A DNA stretch of 64,000 nucleotides from Bacillota bacterium (GTDB taxonomy: Bacteria > Bacillota > Dehalobacteriia > UBA4068), in the NCBI GenBank assembly GCA_030527285.1, contig JAUNBC010000006.1, forward strand, positions 1,259 to 65,258, given 5' to 3'. The number at the start of each line of letters is the position of its first letter. Position 1 is the stretch's first letter. Below, piece after piece: positions 1 to 14,375 of the stretch. Made by a program: the position numbers and the translations under genes. Below the pieces are notes generated by a model. That model searched no databases, was not told the origin of the DNA, and was given only the letters and a program-made list of their open reading frames with translations.

Positions 1-1
1 C

Positions 2-41
2 ATTATACCATTATGCGAGTTACATAATCGGTTACATTTTA
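2..41 (-). promoter_or_regulatory. Promoter for a gene beyond the left edge: TAAAATGTAAC-N7-GTAACTC-N9-TATAAT
   Basis: Minus strand reads TATAAT (2-7) preceded by TGG (extended -10). GTTAC repeats at 19-23 and 31-35 on the plus strand. Same architecture as 4678-4717. Confidence 0.7.
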
Positions 42-93
42 TATTTTATTTATATATTTTTTAACTATTTTTGTTCCCTTATGCGCGCACATA

Positions 94-128
94 AAAACGC
101 GGAGCCGCAAGGCTCCGCGCTTTTCTTT
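94..128 (-). terminator. Intrinsic terminator after surface protein 1
   Basis: GCGGAGCC-gcaa-GGCTCCGC hairpin flanked by A and T runs. Confidence 0.8.
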
Positions 129-163
129 ATGCTTCAGTTATTACGGTTATTACAGTTTCAGGC

Positions 164-3100
164 TTAGGCCTTGGAGCGGCTCGCCTTGAAGCTGTATGCG
201 ATGCCCGCCATAGCGGCCAGCATCAGCAGCGCCCACAGCGTCGCCGTTCCGGCGTCGTCGGTTTGCGGCGCGTCGGCCAGCGGGATCTCCTCCTCGATGA
301 TTATCGGCTCAGCCTCAGGCACCGGCTCTTCCGGGATATAGGTCGGCGGATCCGGCGGATTCGGCGGAGGAGGAATGTTCGGGATGACGTTGCGCAGATA
401 ATTGACTACGAACGTACCGGTGGGATTCTCCTTAGTCAGCTCCACTTGCAGCTGCTCCGCGATACCAAGGTTCATGGCGGTATAGTTGTAGCTGTTGCCG
501 CCGTAGACTCTGCTCGCAGCGGGGCTGAAGCCGTAGACCTGCGCGCCGTTCATCTCGCCGTCGTACGACCCGCTTTCGCTGCCGTCTAAGGTAGGCGTAC
601 CGCCATTGATGCTGGTGTAGTAATTATAGGTGACGCCGAGGCTGTACTCGATATTGGGGAAGATGTTATAGCAGGTGATATTCAGCCTGAAGCCGGTTGC
701 GCGCAGATCATCCAGATCGATGCTGCCGCTGCAGGTAGTTGTATCGTAATGCCACGGATTGGGCGCACCCGCGATCGGGTAACCGTTTTCATCCACGCCC
801 GAAGCAGCCTTGGCCGGAACATGATAATTGGTAGTTACAGCGCCCAGGTCATCGGTCTCGATCAGCTCAAAGTTGAGGACGCCAAGCTTATCAGGTACGG
901 GCGGAAGATCTTCCTCTCTCACATTTGCCACCACCGGCACGCCGCCGGTGTTGGCATTGAACGTGTTTATCTCCTCGTTCAACACTTCAACGATTTCCTC
1001 CTGCTCTTCCAGAGCTGCCACGACGTCCCGCAGGAAGCCGAAATACTCGGTCTCGCCGTCTCTCAGCTTAAATTCATAAACGTTCTCCGCCAGCGCAGCC
1101 TCGGCATCCGCCAAAGCCTGGTACAGCGGCTTATAGCTATCAAAAGCGGCGACGCGCTCAGGGACTTCCTGCGGGCTGGAGGAGGCCCACGGAACGCCGT
1201 TCTCATCCACTCCCGAATAAGCGCAGACTGCGGCGATCCGGGCGTCGATTACTGCATTGCAAATCCCGATTGCATCCTTCAATGCGGCCAGCTCAGACCT
1301 GCGCGCAGCTTTCTTCGATTCTAAGTTCTCCAGCTTTGTAGCATAATCCGGATCATCCTCATCAAGAGCAGCAAGTTGCAAATTGAGGCCGTTAAGCACC
1401 GTATCGTCCCAGTCGTCACCGAGCAAAACTTCCCCCAGAACGTAAGCGACCTCTGCATCCGTGAAGGATGGCTCCACATCCAGCTCCTCGCGCAGCTTAT
1501 AATAGATAGCGCTCAGCACTTGCGCCGGATCGTTGATAGGAGCAACGAACAACATCGTGTCTTTCATTTTCAATGCTTCAAATTCGGCTAAAGCATCCAG
1601 ATAGGCGTCGAACAAGGCGCGGTCAGTCTCGTTGATCTTGGCGCTGATCTCAGCTTCGGCGGCCGCAATAGCCGCGCCCAATTCATCCTCGCCCTGCCAG
1701 AAGCGGATGCTGAAGGAGAAGTAGTCGTCCTCGCCCAGCGGCGCGGTCTCACCGGTAGCCAGCTTGGTAACGCTCATGCCGACCTGACCGTAATTGTTGA
1801 CGCAGACGATCTCGATATTATCCGTGATCCTGAGCTCGCTCACATAGTCAGGCTCTTGATTAGCGCCGTCGACCACGTAATAGGTACCGAAATCACTACC
1901 GGTAGTGGTCTCCGTCAGACTGATCAAGTCTCCGACTTGGACGGTGAAGCTCTTGCTTGCGCCGTCAGCCAGGGAGAACGTCTCAGCTTCGCCTTCGTTG
2001 ATGCTCAATTCGAATTCATATTCCGTACCCGCTGCCGGCAGCAGCTCGGAGTCGCCGATGACTTGCTTGGTGACCGTCAAAGTACGCTCCTCGGCTTTGT
2101 TTTGCAGCTCTGCGGGATCAGTGCTCGTAACTTCGGTTTCGTTCATATAGACCTTGCCGAAGCTCACGCTGAAGGAGGAATTAGCCATCTTGGCAAAGCC
2201 CTCGGGAACGGTGGTCTCCTCCAGCATATAAGTCTGGCCGGAGGGCAGGCCGATGATGGAGCCTTTGCCGTCCTCGCCGGTCAAGCTGGAACTCTTACTA
2301 TAAGAAACTCCGCTCGTGGCGGTAAATCCCGCGCCCGGCAACGCGGTATATACGTTCGGCGCTTCAGCGCTATTGCCCGTCTTGCTGAAATTGAAATCGG
2401 CCTGATAGCCGAACACCGTCGGCGAGGTAAAGGCCGTTTCCATCTCGTCGCTCAAGCTGATATTGCCGTCTGTGTCCACATCGCGGAACTGATATTTAAG
2501 CTCCGCGCTGCTGTTAGTGGGATATACGCCGCTTGTAGCGTCCGCTGCGGGACGCGTGCCCGCCGCATAGCCGATGAAGCCGTCAGCCAGCGTATCGAGC
2601 CTGACGCGATAGGTCAGCGAATAATGATACTCAGTCGTAGCGCCGTCCCCGGAGCCGGTGGTAGTACTATTGCGCGAGCTCTGCAGGCGCAGATCCCAGA
2701 CAAAGCTATCGTTATCCGGGTCATAGCGCAATACGCCGCGCGCATTCTCAGCCGTGGCGGCCTCGCTCTCGGTGGTCAGATCGAGCGCGCCGTTCTCCAA
2801 CAGCAGGCTTTGGAAGCCGACGAAATCGACCATAGCGCCCATGGCGTCGGTGACCATCCATACGTCCACGCCCATGGTGATGCTGCCGTTGATCGCTTCA
2901 AAGATGGGCTGTAAGCTCGTCAAGGCGTTACTGGCAGTATAAGCCGTACCGCTGCTGGTGGCTAAGCTATTGAGCAGCGCATTAGCCGTAGTGCCGGCGT
3001 CAAAGGCGATGGTATGCAGCGTAGCGCCATTGTTCTTGACCGCGTTAGCGCCGGCAATAGCGCCCGCTCTATCGGCGTTGTTCATCCGGTTTCCGCCACC

Positions 3101-4015
3101 CCGAATGCCGGTAATGGTTCCGGTTTTGGCCAGGTTAGCTGCGTTCCAATATTCTTTATAAGCGGCCTCTCCGCCATCGACCCAATTCCAGCTAATATTA
3201 CCCCTGTTGCCCATTCTCCAGTAACCGTAGTCGTTATGACCGCGGCAGCCGGTATGATCCTGGCAGCCAGAACTATTTTGAGAAAGAATGGATCTAAACT
3301 CTGTCCAGGGGTCGACCTCATCATTACCCGTGTACGTCGCGTGGAAGGTCGGTACGCCGTCGCTGAGGAATATCACGTGCTTGCTGCAGCCCTCAATGGC
3401 CGCGTCGTTCAGCAGATTGGCGGCTAATTGCAGGCCGCCCTGAGCATTGGTGCCGCCGCTGGCGCTCAGTCCGTTGACAACGCCCTTGGCGGTGGTAGCG
3501 TTTGCAGCGGTGGCAACGTCCTGCCAGCCGGAGTTAACGGTGGCGTCCGAGGCGAAGGAGACGATCGCCAGATAGCGCTTGGCGGTGCTGCCCTCGGCCA
3601 GATCGGAATAAATGTCGATGAAACCGCCTTCAGCAGTCAAGACTGTCTTTACATTCGCCAGGCGGGTGGAATTGTTATTAACCATCGAGCTGGAGGTGTC
3701 GATGACCAGCACCACGGCAGCGTCCTCGCTGACGGAGGTCCAGAGAATATCCTCGGTGGTCTTCACGTCCAGCGTGATATCAAAGACGTTCTCGTATTCG
3801 GTGCCGGCGATAGTCTTGTTGACCGTCAGGCGGCCGGCGTTATCTGTGTCTTCCGCGTGCGGGTCAACGGCGGTAGCGTCAGCGCCGCTGACTATCTGCA
3901 CCGAGCTGGCCGGAGTCGTGGTTTCCGCCAGGGCGACGCCCATCAGCAGCGGGATGACCAGCAGCACGGTCAGCAGCACCAGCAACCCTTTCCTGTTCTT
4001 GATCTTTGCCATCAT
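164..4015 (-). CDS. Sortase-anchored surface adhesin 1: signal peptide, vWA domain, pilin/SpaA-like Ig repeats, doubled-motif LPXTG-type anchor
   Basis: Signal peptide MAKIKNRKGLLVLL; MIDAS DTSSSM; FLSDG; IEEEIPLADAPQTDD then hydrophobic helix and basic tail. Start moved from 4198 to 4015 (RBS GAAAGGGG) because the longer ORF runs through the riboswitch. Confidence 0.85.
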   Translation of the reverse strand: MMAKIKNRKGLLVLLTVLLVIPLLMGVALAETTTPASSVQIVSGADATAVDPHAEDTDNAGRLTVNKTIAGTEYENVFDITLDVKTTEDILWTSVSEDAAVVLVIDTSSSMVNNNSTRLANVKTVLTAEGGFIDIYSDLAEGSTAKRYLAIVSFASDATVNSGWQDVATAANATTAKGVVNGLSASGGTNAQGGLQLAANLLNDAAIEGCSKHVIFLSDGVPTFHATYTGNDEVDPWTEFRSILSQNSSGCQDHTGCRGHNDYGYWRMGNRGNISWNWVDGGEAAYKEYWNAANLAKTGTITGIRGGGNRMNNADRAGAIAGANAVKNNGATLHTIAFDAGTTANALLNSLATSSGTAYTASNALTSLQPIFEAINGSITMGVDVWMVTDAMGAMVDFVGFQSLLLENGALDLTTESEAATAENARGVLRYDPDNDSFVWDLRLQSSRNSTTTGSGDGATTEYHYSLTYRVRLDTLADGFIGYAAGTRPAADATSGVYPTNSSAELKYQFRDVDTDGNISLSDEMETAFTSPTVFGYQADFNFSKTGNSAEAPNVYTALPGAGFTATSGVSYSKSSSLTGEDGKGSIIGLPSGQTYMLEETTVPEGFAKMANSSFSVSFGKVYMNETEVTSTDPAELQNKAEERTLTVTKQVIGDSELLPAAGTEYEFELSINEGEAETFSLADGASKSFTVQVGDLISLTETTTGSDFGTYYVVDGANQEPDYVSELRITDNIEIVCVNNYGQVGMSVTKLATGETAPLGEDDYFSFSIRFWQGEDELGAAIAAAEAEISAKINETDRALFDAYLDALAEFEALKMKDTMLFVAPINDPAQVLSAIYYKLREELDVEPSFTDAEVAYVLGEVLLGDDWDDTVLNGLNLQLAALDEDDPDYATKLENLESKKAARRSELAALKDAIGICNAVIDARIAAVCAYSGVDENGVPWASSSPQEVPERVAAFDSYKPLYQALADAEAALAENVYEFKLRDGETEYFGFLRDVVAALEEQEEIVEVLNEEINTFNANTGGVPVVANVREEDLPPVPDKLGVLNFELIETDDLGAVTTNYHVPAKAASGVDENGYPIAGAPNPWHYDTTTCSGSIDLDDLRATGFRLNITCYNIFPNIEYSLGVTYNYYTSINGGTPTLDGSESGSYDGEMNGAQVYGFSPAASRVYGGNSYNYTAMNLGIAEQLQVELTKENPTGTFVVNYLRNVIPNIPPPPNPPDPPTYIPEEPVPEAEPIIIEEEIPLADAPQTDDAGTATLWALLMLAAMAGIAYSFKASRSKA

Positions 4016-4039
4016 TTTAACTTCCCCTTTCAAAGTTAA

Positions 4040-4127
4040 ATATGGCAGCCGGCTGTCCTGCTCCCGATGCGGGAGTTTAGACCCTTGGCTTTGCGTCGCG
4101 GCGTTTCCGCCGGTTTGCCTTTTCATC
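4040..4127 (-). promoter_or_regulatory. c-di-GMP-I (GEMM-I) riboswitch aptamer
   Basis: GGCAAACCGGCG-GAAA-CGCCGCGACGCAAAGCC...GGGTCTAA...ACAGCCGGCTGCC matches the GEMM-I consensus; ends about 12 nt before the RBS. Confidence 0.9.
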
Positions 4128-4284
4128 ATTTCGCACGCCAGATAGATTTGACGCGGCTTGATAATAAAACTAACCCTGATATCTGAAATAAACTGCAACG
4201 AGCGACATAATGCTTACTGCGAATAACAAAGAGTATCATTGTAGCGCATACGGCCATACGGGGCGATCCCCCAAGTATGAAGTC

Positions 4285-4470
4285 CTATGCTGATTTTACC
4301 ACCTCCGCCATAGCTCCGTCAATAAGTTTTAACAGTTCTAATGCGGAGCGGAAGCTGACAGTCTCCCCCGTATCGCTCCACACCAGTTTCCCTTGCCATG
4401 TGGCATGTTCGCGACCCAGGATCTGAATGACGAAGGTGCTCCGCTCCCTGTCTTTCTTCACGTTGCTCAT
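4285..4470 (-). CDS. Small uncharacterised 61-aa protein (WQG...FRSALELLKLID family)
   Basis: RBS GAAGGGA; clear paralog of the C-terminal half of 9501-9950. Confidence 0.8.
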   Translation of the reverse strand: MSNVKKDRERSTFVIQILGREHATWQGKLVWSDTGETVSFRSALELLKLIDGAMAEVVKSA

Positions 4471-4677
4471 AGTATCATTCCCTTCAACATTGCAGCCGGC
4501 GATAAGACCCGCGCGGCTGCGGGCGCAACGGGCGGCGGATAAGGGACGGGCTCTTATGCGCCGCCATACGGCAAATGAGCCGTGATAGCCTTGCTCGTGC
4601 CCATTATACGGCGCGCGGGGAAATGCCCGATCCCACCCAATAAACTATGCGCCGCCCCTTATCGATATTACTCTTTT

Positions 4678-4717
4678 ATTATACGCATGATAGAGTTACG
4701 CGAATAGTTACATTTTA
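4678..4717 (-). promoter_or_regulatory. Promoter TAAAATGTAAC-N7-GTAACTC-N9-TATAAT driving the 61-aa gene and probably adhesin 1
   Basis: Plus strand ATTATA 4678-4683, GAGTTAC 4693-4699, GTTACATTTTA 4707-4717; same spacing as 2-41. Confidence 0.7.
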
Positions 4718-4982
4718 ATGAATTAAGAAGTTTGTGCTAAAAATATTTGTCACACTCTGTCGCAATTAGTCTAATTGGGAGTTATTTTCACCAATTTGCA
4801 ACGTTTCCCGTAACCATAACTGATTTGCGAACAGCGCGGTCAGCGCGGGCGGTAGTTGTTAGGAAATAGAATGAAGGCGCGCTCTTGCCCATCTACAACA
4901 GCGCGCCGTCATTTCTTCTATTATATATAGAGTATATTTAGAGTTGTGTAGAGCTTAAACGCGGAGCATGCCGCGCCGCGCT

Positions 4983-7900
4983 TTAACCGCGGCTGCGGCG
5001 GCGGCCGAACACCACCACGCCGGCCAGAGCCAGCGCTCCGAGCGCCAGCCACAGATAAAGCTGCGCGCTATCACCGGTGGGCGGTACGTCCGCCAGCGGT
5101 ACGTCCTCCTCGATAATGGTTGTAATATCCGTTGTCGGGGCCGGCTCCTCTATAATGACCGTATCAGTCTGCGGCACCACCGGATCAGGGATGCGAATCG
5201 GCTGATCGGGGCCGGGGCCGGGCGGCGGATCCTCCGGGATGATCGGCGTGCTATAGGTGTTGGTCGCCGTCATACCATTGCAAACTGTACTATAATTCGG
5301 GGATACGGTAAGTTCAACAATGCGGTAGCTGATCTCCGCACCCTGCTTGTCATATTTGGGGTAGGTGCCGATAGACTCAGTCCAGTCGCTGCCATCGGCG
5401 CTGCCGCTTATGGTGTGTACGATTTCTACGCCATCCGTGCCCAACTCGCGCACGTCGTTGATATACAGGGCGAAGTCCAGGGACTCGGGGTAGTCATAAT
5501 TCGTGGGGAAGTCGACCCATTTCTTGGTGATAGTCAGCTCAATGTCCTCGCTCAGCAGGTTGACCAGATTTAAGGGGTCGCTCGCCGGCGTGACGTTCGT
5601 GTAATTACTCGGTAAATTCAGCTCCTCCACGGTGTATACGATAGGCGTTATGCCATCCGTATTATACTTGTCAAGGCCCTTAAATACATACTGCCAGCCA
5701 TTGCCCTCATTGAGATCGACCTGAACTCCTACCGGGGCACCATTAGCCAAGAGCTGGATTGTCAGTATATCAGGACGGGTTGTGTAGGCGTTATCATTAT
5801 CCAGCCAAGTCTTAGTCACTTGCACCATATGCTTCAGCGAATTGGTGAAGGTGTAGGCGTAGGTGTTGGTGTCGGTGTTGGTGTTGGTGTTGGTGTCTGG
5901 GAGAGTAACGATGGTGGAATATAAAGGAACATCTTTCTCCACCACGCGGTAGCTGACGCCGTCAAGCTTGGGCGCGTAGAAGGTATGCATCAGCGTGCTC
6001 GTATTTACGGCGCTGCCGGAAGCAACTTCTTGCTCTTCAACGTCGCTCCATTCGATCTCTCCATTAACAACCTCGCCCTTTTGCAGAACGAAGGTGATCG
6101 TCGCCGGCCGGTCGGCGCTGGGGGCTGTTACGCCATTGGTCTCAACTCCGTCATCCCAGATCTTATATACGGGGAAGCTGAGCAGGTCGAGCGTATTGGT
6201 CAGGGTCGCGGTATAGCTGCCCGCGGTACTACCATCGGTGATCACCGCCTCCGCCGGCTTATAGCCGGGAACAACCTCCTCAATGAACACATAGTTGGCT
6301 TCAACTATATCGTTGCCGATCTTGATATATTTCGGCAGGGTGACGCTGAGCTTGTAGTTTTTGCTCGGGTCTGTATCTTTTTTCAACTCGTAGCTTCCGA
6401 GCTTCGTATCGGTAGTAATTCCATCGGTCGTACTGCGATGATAGAGATAGACCGTAACGCTATCGGGACGCAGGCCGAAGTAATCCTCGGTGCTGTCATA
6501 CGTATCATCCCATACCTTACTCAGAGTGACATTGATGGTCTTCAGCGTATTGGTGATGGTGATGATCTTGTCACCATTATCAACAGCCACCTCATCGGTA
6601 TAGCCGACCGGAACATCCTCTTTGATATAATCTCCAGTAAGATCATCATACGCGACCGGCAGGCTCACCGTGGTAGTCCAATTCCCTGCCGGGGTGTTGC
6701 TGGCGGCGAGTGACTGATTGTCAATGATTTTGGTCGGCTGCTCTTTTTCCGGGTCGTCAATGATATCGAATGTGACCGAAGCCGGACGCAGCTTGAAATA
6801 AGCATTGGTCGATGCGCCATTTTCCATAATGCCAGCAATGGTGTCGCCTTTCCATTCCTTGTTCACCGTCCATTCGGTGGCAGGGGGAGTATAGGTGTTG
6901 GTGAGGGTGATGATTTTGCCATTCGCGTCATAAGCGCCATAGGCGAATTTTGAGAAAGCATTAGAGCTACTGAAATTAAGCCCAAGCTTGCCGTCGTTTC
7001 CAACAGTAATAGTCACGCTACCCCGATTACCACTATTACCCATTGTAATTGTTGCCGAGGTGCCAGAGACAAAATCATTGACAGTAATACTACCAAGCTG
7101 GTTGGCATTAGAATGCGCTTGTTTCCAGGCGTTGAACGCCGTGACAAAGGCCGTCTTCTGCGTATCCGTCAATGTGTTCTGCGTCCAGACCTTAGTGTTA
7201 TTGCCCTTGTTCACCATGATAAAAGCAGCGGAAAGATCATTGTACGCCAATTCATTACAGGGGTTTACGACCTCAAGCGACGTGATAGACAGCGCCTTTG
7301 GTACCGGGTCGCCCACTACTGTCATAGTATAATTATCGGGTTCTGTTTCCGTGACGCTGTAATCGTCATACGGCAGGCTGTTCCAGGTATATGTCCAGTT
7401 TTTGCTCGGATCGGTATTCGCACTCAGAGTCACCGGGTCGCCATAAGGGGTTGCGGTTTGTCCGCTTCCTCTATAAAGCTGCACCACAAGCTCCGTGGGC
7501 TGATTGGCCGCCGGATTATTTCCATGATCCCAGAGCTTATTAACAGTAAAGCTGGTGACGGCGTTCACGCTCACCGGCTCGAAAGCGATGACCGTCGGCA
7601 CCTTGAAATTGATGGTTTGCTTGCCACCCTGGATAACGCCGTTGTTCAAGATGGCGTAATCGAGGACGGTGGCGTCATTGGTCGGATAGATGCCCTTGGC
7701 GATCAGCGCGGCAGCTTTCTCGTCGGCGCGGAAATCTGCAGAACGGTCGTTGTCGACGATTTCGTTATAATCATCCAGCGCGTCTCCACGATCCTTGCCG
7801 TCGGTCACGCTGGCATAATAATTGAAGTTGGTAGTTGTGTCGAGCGTGACTTGATACTTCAGCTCGTAATTGTACCAGATTTGATTATTTTTGCCTCCTC

Positions 7901-9134
7901 CCGTTGTCGTCGGGGTAGCTTTACGCAGATCCCAAATTAGCTGATCATTATTGTCGTCGGTAGGCATGGTGACGCCAGTAGCGCCCTCGGTGAGGATGCT
8001 GTCAAACTTGATGTTCGCGCCCATGGGGTCGGTGACCATCCACGCCTCAGCCCAGATGGCAATATTCTCGGAGATCGCTTTAAACTGATTTGCCAGCGTA
8101 GTTGCATTTGCGGCAGTCAGCGCGCAGCCGCTGTTAGCGATGCTGGAAAGATCAGGAGCACTGGCGGCAAAAGCGATGGTATAGATCGTAACACCACTCC
8201 GTTTGAGCGAAGTAGCCACATCCACGCCGGTATCGGTGACGTTCTCGCCCTTAATTTCGGTGAGTGAGTTTCTTTGGCTGGCGATACGCTTATTCGGCGC
8301 GCCGTCGGAGAGCAGTATCACATAGACCTCGTCGATGCCCGCGAGGTCATCCTTGAAAGTACCATCGTTCTGGCGATGGGCGTCGATATTATTCTTCGCC
8401 AGCTGCAGGCCGGCCTGAATATTGGTACCGGTATACAGCTTGTATTTCAAGCCGCTGACCACATCCTGGGCAGCTGCGATATTATCATCCAAGCCGGAAA
8501 GCTCCGTCCAATTCATTTGGCGTTTAGCGTCAGTAGCGAAATGGACGATAGAAAGCAGCCTTTTATAGCTCGCACTGGACGCGCTGGCGGCATAGTCGGC
8601 AATGAAAGCATTGGCGGCGCTGATGGCGGCGCTGATACGCTGCTCGTCCTCCGCCGCATAGACGGAGTCGCCGCTGTTATGACCGTTGGCTGGGATATGA
8701 TAATACTCATCGTCTCCATCACAAAGCGGGCAATCATCACCTTTATAATCCGTGCCTGTGCAGTAACCGCCGCCGGCGGCATCCCACTGCATGGAGACCG
8801 AGGTATCTATCACCAAAGCGACGGCGATATTCTTATCGGTGGGGATACTGGTCAGATCCTGCGTAGTGGTGACCTTGAGCGTGATATCAAAGGTATCCTC
8901 GACCCACTCGCCGCCAGTCGTCTTGACCTGCTCGATGGTCTTTTCTACCTCGACAAGATTGGCGGTTCTTTCGCCGCCCGTATACACGACCTGCGGCCCT
9001 ATTGATGATGGTTGTTGACCTGAACCCCCGCCGCTATGATGTCCATACGATAGCGCGTAGCCGAACAATACCGGCAGCACCAAGACCAGCGTTACTATTA
9101 CCGCGATCAGTTTTCCCCTTCTTTTCGCCTTCAT
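4983..9134 (-). CDS. Sortase-anchored surface adhesin 2: signal peptide, vWA domain, multiple Cna B-type repeats, doubled-motif VPPTG anchor
   Basis: MIDAS DTSVSM; LLSDG; repeats starting V(N/T/S/Y)K.W and ending (L/F/A)TN; IEEDVPLADVPPTGD then TM helix and RRRSRG. Start moved from 9311 to 9134 (RBS GAAAGGAG). Confidence 0.87.
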   Translation of the reverse strand: MKAKRRGKLIAVIVTLVLVLPVLFGYALSYGHHSGGGSGQQPSSIGPQVVYTGGERTANLVEVEKTIEQVKTTGGEWVEDTFDITLKVTTTQDLTSIPTDKNIAVALVIDTSVSMQWDAAGGGYCTGTDYKGDDCPLCDGDDEYYHIPANGHNSGDSVYAAEDEQRISAAISAANAFIADYAASASSASYKRLLSIVHFATDAKRQMNWTELSGLDDNIAAAQDVVSGLKYKLYTGTNIQAGLQLAKNNIDAHRQNDGTFKDDLAGIDEVYVILLSDGAPNKRIASQRNSLTEIKGENVTDTGVDVATSLKRSGVTIYTIAFAASAPDLSSIANSGCALTAANATTLANQFKAISENIAIWAEAWMVTDPMGANIKFDSILTEGATGVTMPTDDNNDQLIWDLRKATPTTTGGGKNNQIWYNYELKYQVTLDTTTNFNYYASVTDGKDRGDALDDYNEIVDNDRSADFRADEKAAALIAKGIYPTNDATVLDYAILNNGVIQGGKQTINFKVPTVIAFEPVSVNAVTSFTVNKLWDHGNNPAANQPTELVVQLYRGSGQTATPYGDPVTLSANTDPSKNWTYTWNSLPYDDYSVTETEPDNYTMTVVGDPVPKALSITSLEVVNPCNELAYNDLSAAFIMVNKGNNTKVWTQNTLTDTQKTAFVTAFNAWKQAHSNANQLGSITVNDFVSGTSATITMGNSGNRGSVTITVGNDGKLGLNFSSSNAFSKFAYGAYDANGKIITLTNTYTPPATEWTVNKEWKGDTIAGIMENGASTNAYFKLRPASVTFDIIDDPEKEQPTKIIDNQSLAASNTPAGNWTTTVSLPVAYDDLTGDYIKEDVPVGYTDEVAVDNGDKIITITNTLKTINVTLSKVWDDTYDSTEDYFGLRPDSVTVYLYHRSTTDGITTDTKLGSYELKKDTDPSKNYKLSVTLPKYIKIGNDIVEANYVFIEEVVPGYKPAEAVITDGSTAGSYTATLTNTLDLLSFPVYKIWDDGVETNGVTAPSADRPATITFVLQKGEVVNGEIEWSDVEEQEVASGSAVNTSTLMHTFYAPKLDGVSYRVVEKDVPLYSTIVTLPDTNTNTNTDTNTYAYTFTNSLKHMVQVTKTWLDNDNAYTTRPDILTIQLLANGAPVGVQVDLNEGNGWQYVFKGLDKYNTDGITPIVYTVEELNLPSNYTNVTPASDPLNLVNLLSEDIELTITKKWVDFPTNYDYPESLDFALYINDVRELGTDGVEIVHTISGSADGSDWTESIGTYPKYDKQGAEISYRIVELTVSPNYSTVCNGMTATNTYSTPIIPEDPPPGPGPDQPIRIPDPVVPQTDTVIIEEPAPTTDITTIIEEDVPLADVPPTGDSAQLYLWLALGALALAGVVVFGRRRSRG
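5862..5897. repeat. In-frame hexamer microsatellite GGTGT(T/C) x6 encoding DTNTNTNTDTNT
   Basis: Six direct 6-bp units read in the sequence. Confidence 0.85.
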
Positions 9135-9167
9135 TCCAACTTCTCCTTTCGCCTTGAAGCTGGAATA

Positions 9168-9252
9168 CCCGGCAACCCGGCCGGCATAGGCCCCTGCCCG
9201 TAGCCCCTGTGGCTTTGCGTCGCGGCGTTTCCGCCGTTTTGCCCTTTTCCGT
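9168..9252 (-). promoter_or_regulatory. c-di-GMP-I (GEMM-I) riboswitch aptamer
   Basis: GGGCAAAACGGCG-GAAA-CGCCGCGACGCAAAGCCACAGGGGCTA...GGCCGGGTTGCC; 27 bp (9210-9236) identical to 4086-4112. Confidence 0.88.
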
Positions 9253-9377
9253 ATTCCGCGGCGGCAGATGGGATTTGCCGCCGCCTGTATGTTATAAAAT
9301 TGCCAAAACATGAAACCGATAATTATGTTATGAAGCGCTCAAAAGCCCACGCGGAGACACGCCTCCACTTATGGAAT

Positions 9378-9406
9378 ATGATAGCAAAAAAAGCCGTCCC
9401 TTTCAA
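9378..9406 (-). promoter_or_regulatory. Sigma-A-type promoter for adhesin 2
   Basis: TTGAAA-N17-TATCAT on the minus strand. Confidence 0.6.
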
Positions 9407-9452
9407 GAGAAAAAACCGTTTTTTTCCCATATAAATAAAAAAGCCGAGCAAT

Positions 9453-9480
9453 TAAAAAAAAGAACGGCCAAAGCCGTCCT
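9453..9480 (-). terminator. Intrinsic terminator after the 149-aa gene
   Basis: GGACGGC-tttg-GCCGTTC followed by a T8 run on the minus strand. Confidence 0.7.
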
Positions 9481-9500
9481 TTTCTGAAACCGAGTATCAT

Positions 9501-9950
9501 TTATTGATTGGAAATCTGGTAAACGCAACCATCTATCAGCTTCAACAGCTCCAGCGCCGAGCGGAAATTGCGCGATACGCCCCGCTCCTGCCACAGCACC
9601 TGCCCCTGCCAGGAGACGTTCTGCCGCTGACGCAGCCGCACGATGAAGGTGGCCAGCTCGCCGCGCTGCTCGCGCACAAGCCGCGCCTCCATAAGCAGCG
9701 GCGGCAGCGGCGGCAGCGCCGGAGCCGCCTTCCGCTCGCTCCGGCCAAAGCTGCGCATCGCCTGCGTGGCCTGCGGCAAGCCCAGGCTCTCGTACAGCTC
9801 GTCCATCAGCAGCAGCGCGCGGCTGATATCGGCAAACTGCTGCGCGCCCGCGGCATAGCAATGATAAAGACGGCCGGCGACCATATGATGCTCAAAGCTA
9901 TCCACGCATAAACAGACGATATTCTCGATCTGCGGTAATATACGATTCAT
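9501..9950 (-). CDS. Uncharacterised 149-aa protein with two internal repeats of the FRSALELL-family domain
   Basis: C-half TFIVRL..WQGQVLW..FRSALELLKLIDG matches the 61-aa protein; directly downstream of the BTAD regulator. Confidence 0.8.
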   Translation of the reverse strand: MNRILPQIENIVCLCVDSFEHHMVAGRLYHCYAAGAQQFADISRALLLMDELYESLGLPQATQAMRSFGRSERKAAPALPPLPPLLMEARLVREQRGELATFIVRLRQRQNVSWQGQVLWQERGVSRNFRSALELLKLIDGCVYQISNQ

Positions 9951-9985
9951 CCTGGCACCTCATGCTGAAAATGGCGGCGGGCGGC

Positions 9986-11230
9986 TTACCAGCTCACCGT
10001 CGGCGAGAAGGAAACGCGGCCGTCGGCGATGGCGGCGGTATTGGCCGGCGTGATCTTGTATTGCAGGCGCACGCCGCGCCCGTGGTAGCGCTCCTGAAAC
10101 ACCTTGTCGATACGCTGCGAAACGATATCGCAATTCTCCTGCGAAATACCGATCAGCAGCGTCAGGAATTGCGAGGCCGAATAGCGCGTGTACAGGTCGC
10201 CGCGGCGCAGCGCCAGGCGAATGGCCTCATGCAGTCCGTCCACCACCTCCTGCATACGCGGGCCGGCCGTCAGCGCCACGCCGGCGGCGTCGGTGACGGT
10301 GACGCTCATCAGGAACACCGATTGACCGGTGCGCTCGATGATGCGCATGACGAAGCGGTAGCTGTCGATAAAGGTCAGATAATTGCAATAGAAGGCGCCG
10401 CTCTCGTCGCCGGCCTCCTGCAAGTCGCTCTTGATATCGTCAAGTATCGCCCAGGGGAACTGCGCGGCCTCGCGCATTTTCTTATACAGCGCGATCATCT
10501 TCTCGCCCGGGGATACGTTCAGCTCATTGAAGAACATCGAGGTCACCGCGTCATAGGCGGCCAGCGCCTCCTTGAAGCGCTTGAGCTCGAACAGGCAGCT
10601 GATGCGCAGCACCTGCACGTCCTCGTTATACAGGTCGATCTTGGCGGCGCGGTTGCAGATGGCGAGCAGCGTCTGATAATCCTTGCGCTCCGACAGCAGG
10701 CGGTACAGCTCATTGATCGCCTGAATGTACATCTTCTGATAGCGCACCGCTAATATCGACACCCAGCTCTCTATCGCCATACGCGGCAGGAAATCGCCCT
10801 TATACAGCTCCACGGCGCGCGTATAGCCGGCGATACGCGCATCGTCGTCGATATCGGGGCCGGAGGCCTGCTGAAAGGCCTTCTCAAACTCCTCGGTATC
10901 AATGACGGTCGGTATCTCGTTATTCCAAAAATAGACGCCGCGCCGGTAACAGATATAATCATAATCAGGCAGGCCGGCATTGGCCAGCAGCTTGCGCATA
11001 CGGTGGATGATGATCTTCAAGGCATTGCCGGGATTATCAATATCCTCCTCCTCGTACAGCAGCTCGATCAGCGAGTCGCGCGTGGCGCCCTTCTCGCGGT
11101 TGACCAGCAGGTATTGCAGCAGATACATCGCCTTGTTGTTGCGATTCTGCTCGATAGCCTGCGCGCCGTCCTCGGTGGAAATAGTGAAACCGCCAAACAT
11201 GCTGACCCTGATCGTCTCCAATAGAGCCAT
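9986..11230 (-). CDS. SARP-family regulator: winged HTH, BTAD domain and degenerate GGDEF domain
   Basis: IRVSMFGGF...LLQYLLVN...RDSLIELL...IHRMRK (AfsR/DnrI-type wHTH); ELYKGDFL and ELNVSPG (BTAD); LRRGDLYTRYSASQF aligns with RxxD-xxx-RxGGDEF. RBS GGGAGGAG. Confidence 0.88.
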   Translation of the reverse strand: MALLETIRVSMFGGFTISTEDGAQAIEQNRNNKAMYLLQYLLVNREKGATRDSLIELLYEEEDIDNPGNALKIIIHRMRKLLANAGLPDYDYICYRRGVYFWNNEIPTVIDTEEFEKAFQQASGPDIDDDARIAGYTRAVELYKGDFLPRMAIESWVSILAVRYQKMYIQAINELYRLLSERKDYQTLLAICNRAAKIDLYNEDVQVLRISCLFELKRFKEALAAYDAVTSMFFNELNVSPGEKMIALYKKMREAAQFPWAILDDIKSDLQEAGDESGAFYCNYLTFIDSYRFVMRIIERTGQSVFLMSVTVTDAAGVALTAGPRMQEVVDGLHEAIRLALRRGDLYTRYSASQFLTLLIGISQENCDIVSQRIDKVFQERYHGRGVRLQYKITPANTAAIADGRVSFSPTVSW

Positions 11231-11294
11231 AAGCACACTCCTCCCAAGCCAGACTGTTCATGAACGGAAATATAGTATATCCCTATATAAACTA

Positions 11295-11323
11295 ATTATA
11301 CGCAACAGGGTGTTATATGTCAA
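11295..11323 (-). promoter_or_regulatory. Consensus sigma-A promoter of the regulator
   Basis: TTGACA-N17-TATAAT, perfect match. Confidence 0.85.
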
Positions 11324-11359
11324 CACAAACAACAAATGCCGCGTTATCATTGCGAAACT

Positions 11360-11381
11360 ATGTAACCATATTGCGTAACTC
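11360..11381 (+). promoter_or_regulatory. Third copy of the GTAAC repeat motif, inverted, upstream of the regulator promoter
   Basis: ATGTAAC-CATATTGC-GTAACTC (8-nt spacer instead of 7). Confidence 0.5.
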
Positions 11382-11395
11382 TTTTGCGTCGGCGC

Positions 11396-11424
11396 AAAAA
11401 AAGGCGGCCGGCGGCCGCCTTTTT
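11396..11424 (-). terminator. Bidirectional terminator after the symporter
   Basis: AAAAAAGGCGGCC-ggc-GGCCGCCTTTTT. Confidence 0.75.
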
Positions 11425-11447: not shown

Positions 11448-12824
11448 TCAAGCGTTGCCGCGGCGTTTCAGCCTTAACATCACAAACAGCATCAGCGCCA
11501 GATAGGCCAGCGCCAGCAGCAGCGTGACGAAAGCCATAAAGGCCGAGCTGGCGGCCAGGCCGACCAGCACCAGTATCGGCGCGCCGAGCAAAATGCCGAA
11601 GCTGGTGCCGAGGATCAGATTATTCGAAGCCGGCGTGCGGTAATTGGGGTCGATCTCGCGCAGCAGCAGCACGCCGGAGCTGATAGTACCGGTGAGCATG
11701 CCGAACATCGAGACAAAGCCCTCGTGATAGTACTCGGGGTAAAGCCTTTTGCATATCCATCTGAGGTAAAGGAAGGTGCCGACGCCGCCGAGTATCGCCA
11801 TCAGCAAAAACGGCGTCCACAAGCCTTGCAGCTCCTCGATCCTGATCGAGACGATGCCGGTGATCACCATCGCGTCAAAAGCCGCTCCGGCGATGCGCGA
11901 CAGCAGGTAATTGTTCTGATACTGGCGCGTCATCACCTTATACTTGCGCAGGCCGACGAACACGGCGCGCAGACCGATGGCGATACCGGTGCCGATGATG
12001 AAGTTGAAGCCCCAGATCAGCGAGTTGAGCAGGCCGCCCACGCCGGCGGCGGTGAACAGCGTGGTCAGCACCCACGCCATCACGTAGGTCAGGCCGTACA
12101 CGACCATCACCAGCGCCATCTGCATCGAAAAACGGTCTACCGATTCAGAGATCGGTATCTCGTTATCGTTCTGGAACTCGTCCAGCGTTACCGAGCCGGA
12201 AATATCCAGCGCGTTATTGCGCTTGACCAGACCCTTTTGCTGCAAATAATTGAGATAGATAACGCCGCATACGCAGGCCACGAGGAAGCCGGCGGCCGCC
12301 AGCGACAGGCCGAAGCTCTGCCCGCCGACGAAGCCGAGATTTTCATAGGTGATGCCGATATTATTGGCCTGACCGGGGCCTTGCCCGTAGGCCATCGGCA
12401 GCAGTATGCCCGCCGCCTTGAACATACCCGGCATAAAGGTATAGGCCAGGCCCAGCGATATCACCAGGCCGATGACCGCCTGCACCAGATAGGTGGAGAC
12501 GATCAGCGCGCCCGATTTAAGGCCGATCAGCCGCCCCTTCTCATTGACCGACAACGGCTTGGGCACGCGCAGAGCCAGCGCGATAAAGCCCAGAGCTATC
12601 GCATGATAGGTGATAGTCTCCATGAAGTCGATATTGATCGGCAGCACGTTCAGATAGCGCAGAGCCAGCGCGATGAAGCCCGCCAGCACCGCCGTGGGCA
12701 TCAGGCTTTTGCGCACCACCGGCAGCTTGCGCCGCAGCACGTTGGCCAGCAGCATCAGCGCGCAGACGATAGCGATCTGCAAAATGCCGCCCCAGAGGTT
12801 AGTATTCGCAGCAGAAAAATCCAT
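11448..12824 (-). CDS. Sodium:glutamate symporter (GltS/ESS) family membrane protein
   Basis: About 12 TM helices; PTAVLAG, GQGPGQA and FGMLTGTISSG loop motifs. Confidence 0.7.
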   Translation of the reverse strand: MDFSAANTNLWGGILQIAIVCALMLLANVLRRKLPVVRKSLMPTAVLAGFIALALRYLNVLPINIDFMETITYHAIALGFIALALRVPKPLSVNEKGRLIGLKSGALIVSTYLVQAVIGLVISLGLAYTFMPGMFKAAGILLPMAYGQGPGQANNIGITYENLGFVGGQSFGLSLAAAGFLVACVCGVIYLNYLQQKGLVKRNNALDISGSVTLDEFQNDNEIPISESVDRFSMQMALVMVVYGLTYVMAWVLTTLFTAAGVGGLLNSLIWGFNFIIGTGIAIGLRAVFVGLRKYKVMTRQYQNNYLLSRIAGAAFDAMVITGIVSIRIEELQGLWTPFLLMAILGGVGTFLYLRWICKRLYPEYYHEGFVSMFGMLTGTISSGVLLLREIDPNYRTPASNNLILGTSFGILLGAPILVLVGLAASSAFMAFVTLLLALAYLALMLFVMLRLKRRGNA

Positions 12825-12869: not shown

Positions 12870-14258
12870 TCATTTGCCTTTTAACGCCTGATACAGATGC
12901 ACGTACTTGATCGCCGAGCGCGGATGATCGGAGCGCGCCTCATACTGCTCGCCGCCGGCGCTGAAGGTCAGCAGCATCTGCGATATGGCCGCCATGCCGG
13001 TGATCTCGTCGAGCGCAAAATGGAACTCCCGCGCGCCAGCCCGTCCATAAACGTCGCCATACTGCGTTGCGGCCAAAGACCCGCTGGGGATTTGCGAATT
13101 TTCATACTCCCGCGCGCCAGCCCGTCCATAAACGTCGCCATACTGCGTTGCGGCCAACGACCCGCTTCGGTCACGTACTTTATTATGTACGCTCCCTTGC
13201 AGGTCATTGTCCGCGCCTTGTCTGGCTTGTTTCTGAACGCGCTGGGGGATTAAGGCAAAATGCAGCCCCGCGCGGTCAAGGCTCATCGCGCCCACGCCCA
13301 GCGCGTCGAGCTGCGCGCCGTTGACCCGATACAGGCTCTGCCCGCGCCGCTCGCCGGCCAGCACGCCCGGCCGCCGCTCGATATAGGCGGGCAGCTGCCG
13401 CTGCTGCCAATCGAACCATTGCTGTATGGTGGCAAACGGCGGCTCGCCGCCTTCCGCGGCGGCAAAGCAGCCGTATTCGTCCAGGCGCAAACGCAGGCCG
13501 CAATCGCAAAAAAAGAGGTCGCCGCGGCTGTGCAGGCGGCCGCTCTCGCCGCAGGCCGGACACAGATACAGAGCCGTCTCCAGCGATTCGGCCATTTGCT
13601 CGCCGGGATAGGCCCTGGGCGCGCGCCGCTGGTCTTCATAGAAATCACAATGCAGGTCGCGCTCGATCAGCTCCTGCACCTGCTGATTAGTCATCGCGGC
13701 CAATTCCTCGGGCGCGTACTCATGTATCACCCGGCCGTAAAGACGGCCGCGGCGCTTCTTTTTGGACCAGCGCGGCCATACTAAATAGGCGTCGGAAAGA
13801 CGGTAGGTGATCAGCGCCACGCCGCTCATCCGCGCCAACCGTCCGGCGCTGTCGGCAATGGGCATGGTGCGTCCGCCCCAGGAGCGTTCGCCCTCGATGA
13901 ATATCGTCACCGGATAGCCGGCCTTGAGCACGCGCAGTATCTCCATCGCGCATTGCGCGTCGGTATGCCCCTTGGCGCGCCAGATCGGCCGCTGCAAAAA
14001 CGTGATCAGCCGCCCTATCCAGCCCCAATGGCTGATATGCGCGGAAGCCACGAAGTATGAATGCGCGCGCAGAGAATTGACCACTACCAGCATGTCCATA
14101 TCGGTATAATGATTGGACATCAGCAGGAAGGTCTTATGCCTGGGTATGTATTTATCGCTGCGAAAGCCGATCAGACAATGCGAGATCGCCCGCACCAAAG
14201 GCCGCGCCGCGCGATAAGCAAAGCGATGCCATCTGTTTTGTGCCGCTGTTAGCTTCAT
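12870..14258 (-). CDS. Lysophospholipid acyltransferase (PlsC-like) with a C-terminal Zn-ribbon extension, carrying an in-frame palindromic insertion
   Basis: NHYTDMD (HxxxxD), FIEGERSWGG, LYLCPACG..FFCDCG. Confidence 0.75.
   Translation of the reverse strand: MKLTAAQNRWHRFAYRAARPLVRAISHCLIGFRSDKYIPRHKTFLLMSNHYTDMDMLVVVNSLRAHSYFVASAHISHWGWIGRLITFLQRPIWRAKGHTDAQCAMEILRVLKAGYPVTIFIEGERSWGGRTMPIADSAGRLARMSGVALITYRLSDAYLVWPRWSKKKRRGRLYGRVIHEYAPEELAAMTNQQVQELIERDLHCDFYEDQRRAPRAYPGEQMAESLETALYLCPACGESGRLHSRGDLFFCDCGLRLRLDEYGCFAAAEGGEPPFATIQQWFDWQQRQLPAYIERRPGVLAGERRGQSLYRVNGAQLDALGVGAMSLDRAGLHFALIPQRVQKQARQGADNDLQGSVHNKVRDRSGSLAATQYGDVYGRAGAREYENSQIPSGSLAATQYGDVYGRAGAREFHFALDEITGMAAISQMLLTFSAGGEQYEARSDHPRSAIKYVHLYQALKGK
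13023..13254 (-). mobile_element. Palindromic repeat element inserted in frame in the acyltransferase gene, with a 61-bp 3' part duplicated at an 81-bp period
   Basis: 13205-13239 is the exact reverse complement of 18981-19015; 13025-13085 and 13106-13166 differ by 1 nt. Confidence 0.8.
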
Positions 14259-14375
14259 ATTCACCCGTATATTTCCGACTGCAATTATTTTAGCCCATAG
14301 GCGGCGAAAAAGCAAGGTTTTTGCTCAGGCGTGCTCAGGCGTATTGATTCGCGCCCAACGCGCCTGCGCGCCCAT

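Follow-up and report, generated by a model that had tools for sequence, protein, structure and literature searches.

Adhesin genes probably placed under two layers of c-di-GMP control, riboswitches and a SARP-type activator, in a Dehalobacteriia genome

Here we analysed a stretch of 64,000 nucleotides from a Bacillota bacterium of the lineage Dehalobacteriia (hereafter the window; C31:1259-65258 of a 1.63-Mb assembly in 40 contigs, 81.5% complete, of a Clostridia genome of gut type), in which two genes for secreted adhesins stand together with riboswitches for cyclic diguanylate (c-di-GMP) of class I (GEMM-I), with two small paralogous genes and with the gene of a transcriptional regulator; every gene, riboswitch and main promoter studied lies on the minus strand. 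We propose that they belong to a surface-attachment regulon that reads c-di-GMP at two levels, transcription and translation, a reading that rests on comparisons of sequence and to which we give a probability of about 0.6. The adhesins, a sortase and a pilus-like machine would thus probably be placed under two layers of control by the same messenger, one exerted by riboswitches and the other by the activator. A previous sequence-only reading of the window had arrived at a similar interpretation, which our analyses support in its main lines while confirming and extending the observation behind it: cmscan, open reading frames, Pfam and inspection of the sequence recovered every element that it had listed, and its account of the anatomy and of the domains was correct.

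The regulator has an OmpR-type winged helix-turn-helix (wHTH) domain followed by a BTAD domain, the order typical of the Streptomyces antibiotic regulatory proteins (SARP), as indicated by Pfam, profile and Foldseek comparisons, and it is the only gene with a BTAD domain in a genome that has five GGDEF genes. Translation probably starts at the ATG at 11230, a correction to the start assigned earlier. A profile of 34 homologues (25-51% identity) retrieved from the PDB the SARP-type proteins AfsR (~1e-16) and EmbR (6e-11) and also GGDEF cyclases (8e-8), and the AlphaFold2 model of the protein (predicted local distance difference test score 87) resembles EmbR (Foldseek 2.5e-11), AfsR (template-modelling score 0.64-0.68) and GGDEF domains (0.6-0.69). 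Taken alone the C-terminal part of the regulator matches Pfam GGDEF weakly (E = 0.003), 22 of the 34 homologues being matched by that model. The claim that this domain is a dead GGDEF therefore holds for the family as a whole, by profile, Pfam, fold and alignment. When aligned with the Thermotoga cyclase 4urg, the RYGGDEF of the enzyme falls on RYSASQ[FY] (SASQF in our regulator and SxSQ[FY] throughout the family) and the DxD position is taken by T or S, so we rejected the possibility of an active diguanylate cyclase. The residues of the allosteric inhibitory site (I-site) have been retained: R342 and D345 of the motif RRGD (342-345), which form the RxxD, and R373, the arginine at +28, are invariant in the 34 homologues. 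The RxxD lies five residues ahead of the former GGDEF position, and the profile alignment places R342 and D345 on the RRSD of 4urg and R373 on the arginine of its LLERI. The regulator hence combines a GGDEF fold, the RxxD and the secondary arginine, as in degenerate GGDEF domains that keep an I-site, and the replacement of GGDEF by SASQF together with the invariance of the RxxD and R373 argues that catalysis has been lost and that an allosteric c-di-GMP site has remained under selection. By analogy with such domains, we infer that the regulator binds c-di-GMP at the I-site.

Related loci were gathered with an alignment of nine sequences, and 80 of them were compared. The architecture of about 400 amino acids is represented by 73 clusters and by at least 140 species genomes of the GTDB, Lachnospiraceae, Oscillospiraceae, Peptococcaceae, Diplocloster, Blautia celeris, Anaerofustis and Lacrimispora among them. 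Full-text literature searches returned no description of a SARP, BTAD or Trans_reg_C domain joined to GGDEF. Because cultured carriers exist (Diplocloster species, Blautia celeris NSJ-34, Anaerofustis stercorihominis DSM 28733, Clostridium sp. MCC353 and chh4-2), the hypothesis can be tested directly.

A different view of the C-terminal domain would be that it serves only for dimerisation or for docking of a partner, the regulator being a SARP activator and c-di-GMP acting through the riboswitches alone. The domain is shortened and hardly recognised by Pfam on its own, many Lachnospiraceae loci carry the regulator and its partner with no c-di-GMP riboswitch nearby, and among 74 sampled Clostridia genomes GEMM-I is associated weakly with the regulator (13 of 21 genomes with it against 19 of 53 without it; p = 0.07). 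However, conservation of precisely the RxxD and the +28 arginine in proteins whose catalytic residues have drifted is the pattern expected if selection acts on the I-site alone, and we consider that a non-sensing domain is unlikely.

The evidence that the regulator controls surface genes comes from the promoters. The sequence-only reading had reported two promoters with a GTAAC box in the window, and both were found. The whole genome contains exactly five copies of the box, GTAAC-N7-GTAAC, and all of them are followed 9-13 nt downstream by TANNNT, whereas the reversed control pattern also occurs five times and is never followed by it. The five copies share the flank AAAA[TA] and none of them has a -35 element. 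One copy stands upstream of the 61-aa small gene, riboswitch 1 and adhesin 1. Another lies at the edge of the window, to whose left, where the earlier reading had advised inspection, the contig continues: this promoter precedes a third GEMM-I riboswitch (C31:1122-1214, 77.2 bits) and a secreted protein whose gene runs off the contig end. The remaining copies front a GEMM-I riboswitch with a sorted protein of five Cna_B domains on contig C27, a third gene of the small family on C5, and on C17 an operon (C17:1310-8799) whose products are an acidic membrane protein, a lipoprotein resembling transglutaminases, a sortase, a T2SSF platform protein, four pilin-like proteins and an ATPase of the PilT type. 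As far as the contig could be followed, this filament operon contains no PilB-like ATPase. Three related loci (L026, L056 and L086) have the same cluster next to the regulator, and a fourth (L063) has only the PilT and pilin-like genes in common with it. The leader between the box and the 61-aa gene (4471-4677) is unusually long (~200 nt) and GC-rich; no Rfam family reached its gathering score there.

The two small genes were claimed to be paralogues, and in tblastn (8.8e-12) the 61-aa protein indeed aligns with the C-terminal half of the 149-aa protein, which consists of two beta-beta-beta-alpha repeats and whose gene shares an operon with that of the regulator. When 1.84 billion representative sequences were searched with a profile of the family, 3,279 clusters at 50% identity were retrieved, of which 2,406 had E <= 1e-10, with lengths mostly of about 150 or 290 aa. 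W114-Q115-G116, F129, S131 and E134 are invariant. The family has no match in Pfam, NCBIfam or the PDB, its longer members have no additional Pfam domains, its members are annotated in the source databases only as "hypothetical protein", and we found no description of it in the full-text literature. Two assignments were tried and rejected. The motif N-x-S-W-Q-G suggested PilZ, but no Pfam match appeared up to E = 10 and no PilZ domain was present in the top 50 of 304 Foldseek matches; a fold like Pur-alpha or Whirly ranked 27th in Foldseek with E = 2.0, scores that do not support it.

The survey of neighbourhoods proposed by the earlier reading was mostly positive, in that regulator and small family are tightly linked, although GEMM-I riboswitches lie near the regulator in few loci. 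Of the 80 loci, 42 contain a small-family gene, and in 35 such a gene, mostly of about 150 aa, is no more than ~550 bp away from the regulator. Most often it follows the regulator at a distance of 0-300 nt, frequently with a 4-nt gap or an overlap, and sometimes it is divergent. Of the 74 sampled genomes, 16 have the small family and 21 the regulator; 15 have both, one of these with the regulator only as fragments (Fisher p = 4e-10). The promoters of the family also carry direct repeats in other lineages. Among small-family genes whose translation is not coupled to that of the regulator, 20 of 39 have an exact direct repeat of a 5-mer with a period of 11-13 bp at 9-13 nt before TANNNT, against 25 of 803 control genes (p = 1e-17). 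The repeat differs between lineages (GTAAC, GTAGC, GCGAAA, TTGCGTG, TTAAC, TAAGG) and the recognition helix of the wHTH domain changes in parallel with it (NP.N.LK...HR.R, NG.SSLNNTIFRLR and others), whereas the WQG and FRS motifs of the small proteins stay constant. Because the helix covaries with the repeat, the motifs of the small proteins are fixed and the regulator stands beside a C17-type cluster in relatives, the SARP is, on this comparative evidence, most likely the reader of the box. Repeats of the form GGTAAC-N6-GGTAAC were also seen ~8 kb from the regulator, between lipoprotein genes, in L069, L072, L075 and L077.

Alternatively, the boxes might be recognised by the two-repeat protein, or by a different factor; the small family would then consist of DNA-binding proteins that regulate their own genes, and the SARP would have other targets. 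The boxes mostly precede small-family genes, a protein with two tandem repeats could in principle match a tandem DNA repeat, and the family has no known fold by which DNA binding might be excluded. Yet the repeats sit at -35 and at a fixed distance from the -10 element, which is the class II geometry of OmpR and SARP wHTH activators; it is the recognition helix, not the small-family motifs, that varies with the box; three boxes (on C27, on C17 and at the window edge) front operons with no small gene; and small-family genes are hardly ever found in genomes that lack the regulator. We therefore regard a reader other than the SARP as improbable.

The second layer is formed by the riboswitches. 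Two GEMM-I aptamers had been claimed in the window, and both turned out to be full-length with scores far above the Rfam gathering score of 35 bits for RF01051. Seven copies are present in the genome, two of them in the window. Aptamers 1 and 2 both read ...AAAAGGCAAA, with a G just 5' of GCAAA; a G at this place is taken as the mark of a preference for c-di-GMP rather than cyclic GMP-AMP. In riboswitch 1 the expression platform forms a hairpin between UGCCAU, at the 3' side of the aptamer, and AUGGCA, which consists of the second AUG and the codon that follows it; the inner stem of this hairpin stops one base short of the start codon and its loop holds the Shine-Dalgarno sequence. In all eight platforms examined in this genome and its relatives the 3' UGCC[A/G] of the aptamer is paired in this manner with the region of the start codon. 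Folding gave -14 to -22 kcal/mol for these hairpins (z = -2.9 to -6.6), their stems differ in sequence among copies with the same pairing scheme, as judged by eye, and no terminator lies 3' of the aptamer in any of the eight. Folding thus suggests that they are translational ON switches, since the sequestering 3' bases lie in the part of the aptamer that the ligand stabilises and binding should therefore free the AUG.

Other observations concern these riboswitches. A GC-rich hairpin with the conserved loop AAAUC(N2)AUC lies directly 5' of three aptamers (window 4134-4160 and 9258-9284, and C27 ~75930-75958) and is absent at the third riboswitch of C31. To the right of the window, at C31:74246-76867, a weaker GEMM-I (C31:76746-76827, 43.7 bits) precedes the gene of a membrane sensor of 873 aa whose GGDEF domain is intact (RIGGDEF), an arrangement that could constitute a c-di-GMP feedback loop on a cyclase. 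On contig C1 two nearly identical copies (11656-12088, 83-84 bits) point apart, one heading an operon of the Tad/Flp pilus type (prepilin peptidase, TadE, TadG and CpaB-like genes) and the other preceding the gene of a small secreted protein, beyond which an HD-domain protein similar to HD-GYP is encoded. Two related genomes have three tandem GEMM-I aptamers on the opposite strand ~1 kb from the regulator gene (G038:C3:81869-82246 and G039:C7:45832-46219).

A scan with Rfam of 21 related loci placed a GEMM-I within ~10 kb of the regulator in four of them (L015, L016, L026 and L086), and a cruder scan of all 80 loci with nhmmer and regular expressions gave the same four; no c-di-GMP-II riboswitch was detected in the 21 loci scanned with Rfam. 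The order of small gene, GEMM-I and secreted protein recurs in those four loci and in the genomes G036 and G057. Since regulator and small family are tightly linked and direct repeats mark the promoters, with GEMM-I linkage being sparse, the conserved core is, as far as these comparisons can tell, the regulator, its partner and the repeat box, with riboswitch gating as a second layer specific to a clade. That the window merely holds ordinary riboswitch-controlled adhesins beside an unrelated regulator operon, as could be argued from the confinement of riboswitch proximity to one clade and from the terminator and separate promoter that part adhesin 2 from the regulator operon, is very hard to reconcile with a 17-bp box common to dispersed loci on four contigs, all with surface-structure genes, and with the recurrent gene order in relatives, and we give it little credence.

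Both adhesins have signal peptides and sorting signals, and the motif required correction, being a variant, [IV]PLAD[AV]P[QP]TGD, with APQTDD in adhesin 1. Near both C-termini the pattern [IV]PLAD[AV]P[QP]T[GD]D thus precedes a hydrophobic stretch and a tail of basic residues, and the genome encodes two sortases, so that with their signal peptides the adhesins have the features of sortase-anchored proteins of the LPXTG type; NCBIfam LPXTG_double scored 31.2, under its cut-off of 48. The paralogues of adhesin 1 at the C17 contig end and on C27 have APQTGD where adhesin 1 (window 164-200) has APQTDD, and because the glycine that follows the threonine cleaved by sortase is replaced, its anchoring may be altered.

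Putting these results together, we propose that the GGDEF domain of the SARP-type activator, catalytically dead, would sense c-di-GMP through its retained I-site, and that the c-di-GMP-bound regulator would occupy the GTAAC direct repeats, which replace the -35 element with a period of 12 bp, and recruit RNA polymerase. It would do so at five promoters: that of the 61-aa gene, riboswitch 1 and adhesin 1, that of riboswitch 3 and the secreted protein, and those of the Cna_B protein on C27, the C17 operon and the paralogue on C5. In the transcripts with a riboswitch the aptamer stops a few bases ahead of the sequestor, which would use the 3' UGCC of the aptamer to mask the start codon, and the ligand would keep UGCC within the aptamer and leave the AUG free. 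Genes having both box and riboswitch would consequently need c-di-GMP twice, a coherent AND gate. As a third layer, the protein of about 150 aa with two repeats, co-translated with the regulator, might bind it as a co-activator or an anti-activator, and single-repeat paralogues made from box promoters might feed back on the regulator complex; this role of the small proteins as partners is the part of the model that we hold least firmly. The most far-reaching form of the proposal remains tentative: that a SARP with a degenerate GGDEF domain and its two-repeat partner, a subunit or an antagonist, constitute an undescribed c-di-GMP switch of Clostridia which, with feedback from paralogues and stacked on riboswitches, is an AND gate for adhesins, a sortase and a filament with PilT only.

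Several observations weigh against the two-level reading. The repeats have a period of 12 bp here, and classical SARP sites one of 11 bp. Adhesin 2 is driven by an ordinary sigma-70 promoter with no box, and a promoter-like site at 4322-4293 (TTGACG-18-TAAAAT, preceded by TG), which lies within the 61-aa gene towards its 3' end, could start riboswitch 1 and adhesin 1 independently of the box. The ON direction of the switches was derived from thermodynamic folding alone, the parallel changes of box and recognition helix are confounded by phylogeny, and GEMM-I is common in Clostridia irrespective of the regulator (32 of the 74 genomes). Finally, six of the 74 genomes have the regulator with no small family and the closest homologues of our regulator (L013, L014 and L079) have no small-family gene, so the partner is not obligatory; as 15 of the 16 genomes with the small family have the regulator, it is the small protein that depends on the regulator and not the reverse.

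Known systems offer partial parallels. In Clostridioides difficile c-di-GMP riboswitches control sortase-anchored adhesins and pili (CD2831, CD3246 and pilA1; PMC6200980, PMC6447587, PMC6366702). The situation here is similar in that c-di-GMP riboswitches stand in the leaders of wall-anchored adhesins in a member of Clostridia, high c-di-GMP favouring attachment in C. difficile. The adhesin switches of C. difficile, however, are of class II and transcriptional, whereas those described here belong to class I, lack a terminator and carry a translational sequestor, and no c-di-GMP-sensing transcription factor, family of small partners or shared promoter box has been described for that system. Small proteins tied to c-di-GMP-I riboswitches are known there as the CD1980.2 family, whose members have 58 aa, are membrane-associated, lie downstream of class I OFF riboswitches that act by termination and have no homologues outside C. 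difficile (PMC13724677). Our small family resembles it in being multicopy and linked to such riboswitches in Clostridia, but it is soluble and built of beta-beta-beta-alpha repeats, its genes either precede the riboswitch or adjoin the regulator gene, and it comprises thousands of clusters. Identity of the two families was ruled out, because the proteins studied here have no hydrophobic segment, their genes are upstream of the riboswitch and CD1980.2 is reported to be confined to C. difficile.

The SARP activators AfsR and EmbR (PDB 8hvr, 8k60 and 2fez) share with our regulator the wHTH and BTAD domains, by profile and by fold. Direct repeats in the -35 position of the candidate target promoters are a further likeness. 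The best-known target of AfsR, afsS, is likewise the gene of a small protein. Unlike them, our regulator ends in a degenerate GGDEF domain instead of NB-ARC/TPR or FHA, belongs to Clostridia and not to actinomycetes, has a box with a period of 12 bp and has surface structures rather than antibiotic clusters as candidate targets. In the I-site receptors PelD, PopA, YdaK and PssE a dead GGDEF domain has kept its RxxD, and c-di-GMP bound at the I-site controls the output. The regulator agrees with them in its catalytically dead fold and conserved RxxD; it differs from all four in having a fused DNA-binding activator as output, and to our knowledge none of the four is a transcription factor.

In Clostridia c-di-GMP governs attachment, and we know of no characterised transcription factor of this group that senses it directly. 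If our interpretation is true, the regulator family would supply this missing factor, the SARP DNA-binding module would be a new output for the I-site receptor principle, and the use of one messenger in both transcription and translation would be a clear-cut case in nature of a coherent AND gate. The family also offers predicted operators that vary between lineages, a regulon that has been delimited in a genome of small size, and a conserved partner whose fold has no known relative.

Table 1. Features of the window discussed in the text (positions in the window; promoters and terminators were located by inspection of the sequence and scoring, in agreement with the earlier reading)
Feature	Position	Strand	Details
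GTAAC-box promoter 1	2-35	-	Box 19-35, GTAAC at 31-35 and 19-23; -10 TATAAT 2-7; no -35
Intrinsic terminator after adhesin 1	92-119	-	GC hairpin and T-run; palindrome also scored on +
Adhesin 1, 1283 aa	164-4015	-	Signal peptide, VWA, GBS104-like Ig, SpaA; IPLADAPQTDD, transmembrane segment, basic tail
Sequestor hairpin, riboswitch 1	4007-4047	-	-14.4 kcal/mol, z = -3.96
GEMM-I aptamer 1	4041-4129	-	cmscan RF01051, 73.9 bits, E = 1.3e-12, model positions 1-87
61-aa gene	4285-4470	-	Single-domain member; motifs WQG and FRSALELLKLID
GTAAC-box promoter 2	4678-4711	-	Box 4695-4711; -10 TATAAT 4678-4683; no -35
Adhesin 2, ~1383 aa	4983-9134	-	Signal peptide, VWA, four Cna_B; VPLADVPPTGD sorting signal
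Sequestor hairpin, riboswitch 2	9125-9175	-	-21.6 kcal/mol, z = -4.55; masks AUG 9134-9132
GEMM-I aptamer 2	9168-9253	-	cmscan RF01051, 67.2 bits, E = 5.5e-11, model positions 1-87
Riboswitch 2/adhesin 2 promoter	9378-9406	-	Sigma-70-type TTGAAA-17-TATCAT, upstream TG; no GTAAC box
Intrinsic terminator after 149-aa gene	9452-9479	-	Hairpin and T-run, by sequence inspection
149-aa protein	9501-9950	-	Two beta-beta-beta-alpha repeats; operon with regulator
Regulator	9986-11230	-	Trans_reg_C (wHTH) 26.5 bits, BTAD 52.1 bits, degenerate GGDEF
Regulator promoter	11295-11323	-	Consensus TTGACA-17-TATAAT
Inverted GTAAC box, N8 spacer	11360-11381	+	~36 bp upstream of regulator -35; only N8 copy in the genome

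The inverted box upstream of the regulator promoter is followed by no -10 element and may be an autoregulatory site or the remnant of a divergent arrangement. Elsewhere in the window, an acyltransferase open reading frame (12870-14315) contains an internally repeated segment at 13015-13262, in which SGSLAATQYGDVYGRAGARE occurs twice.

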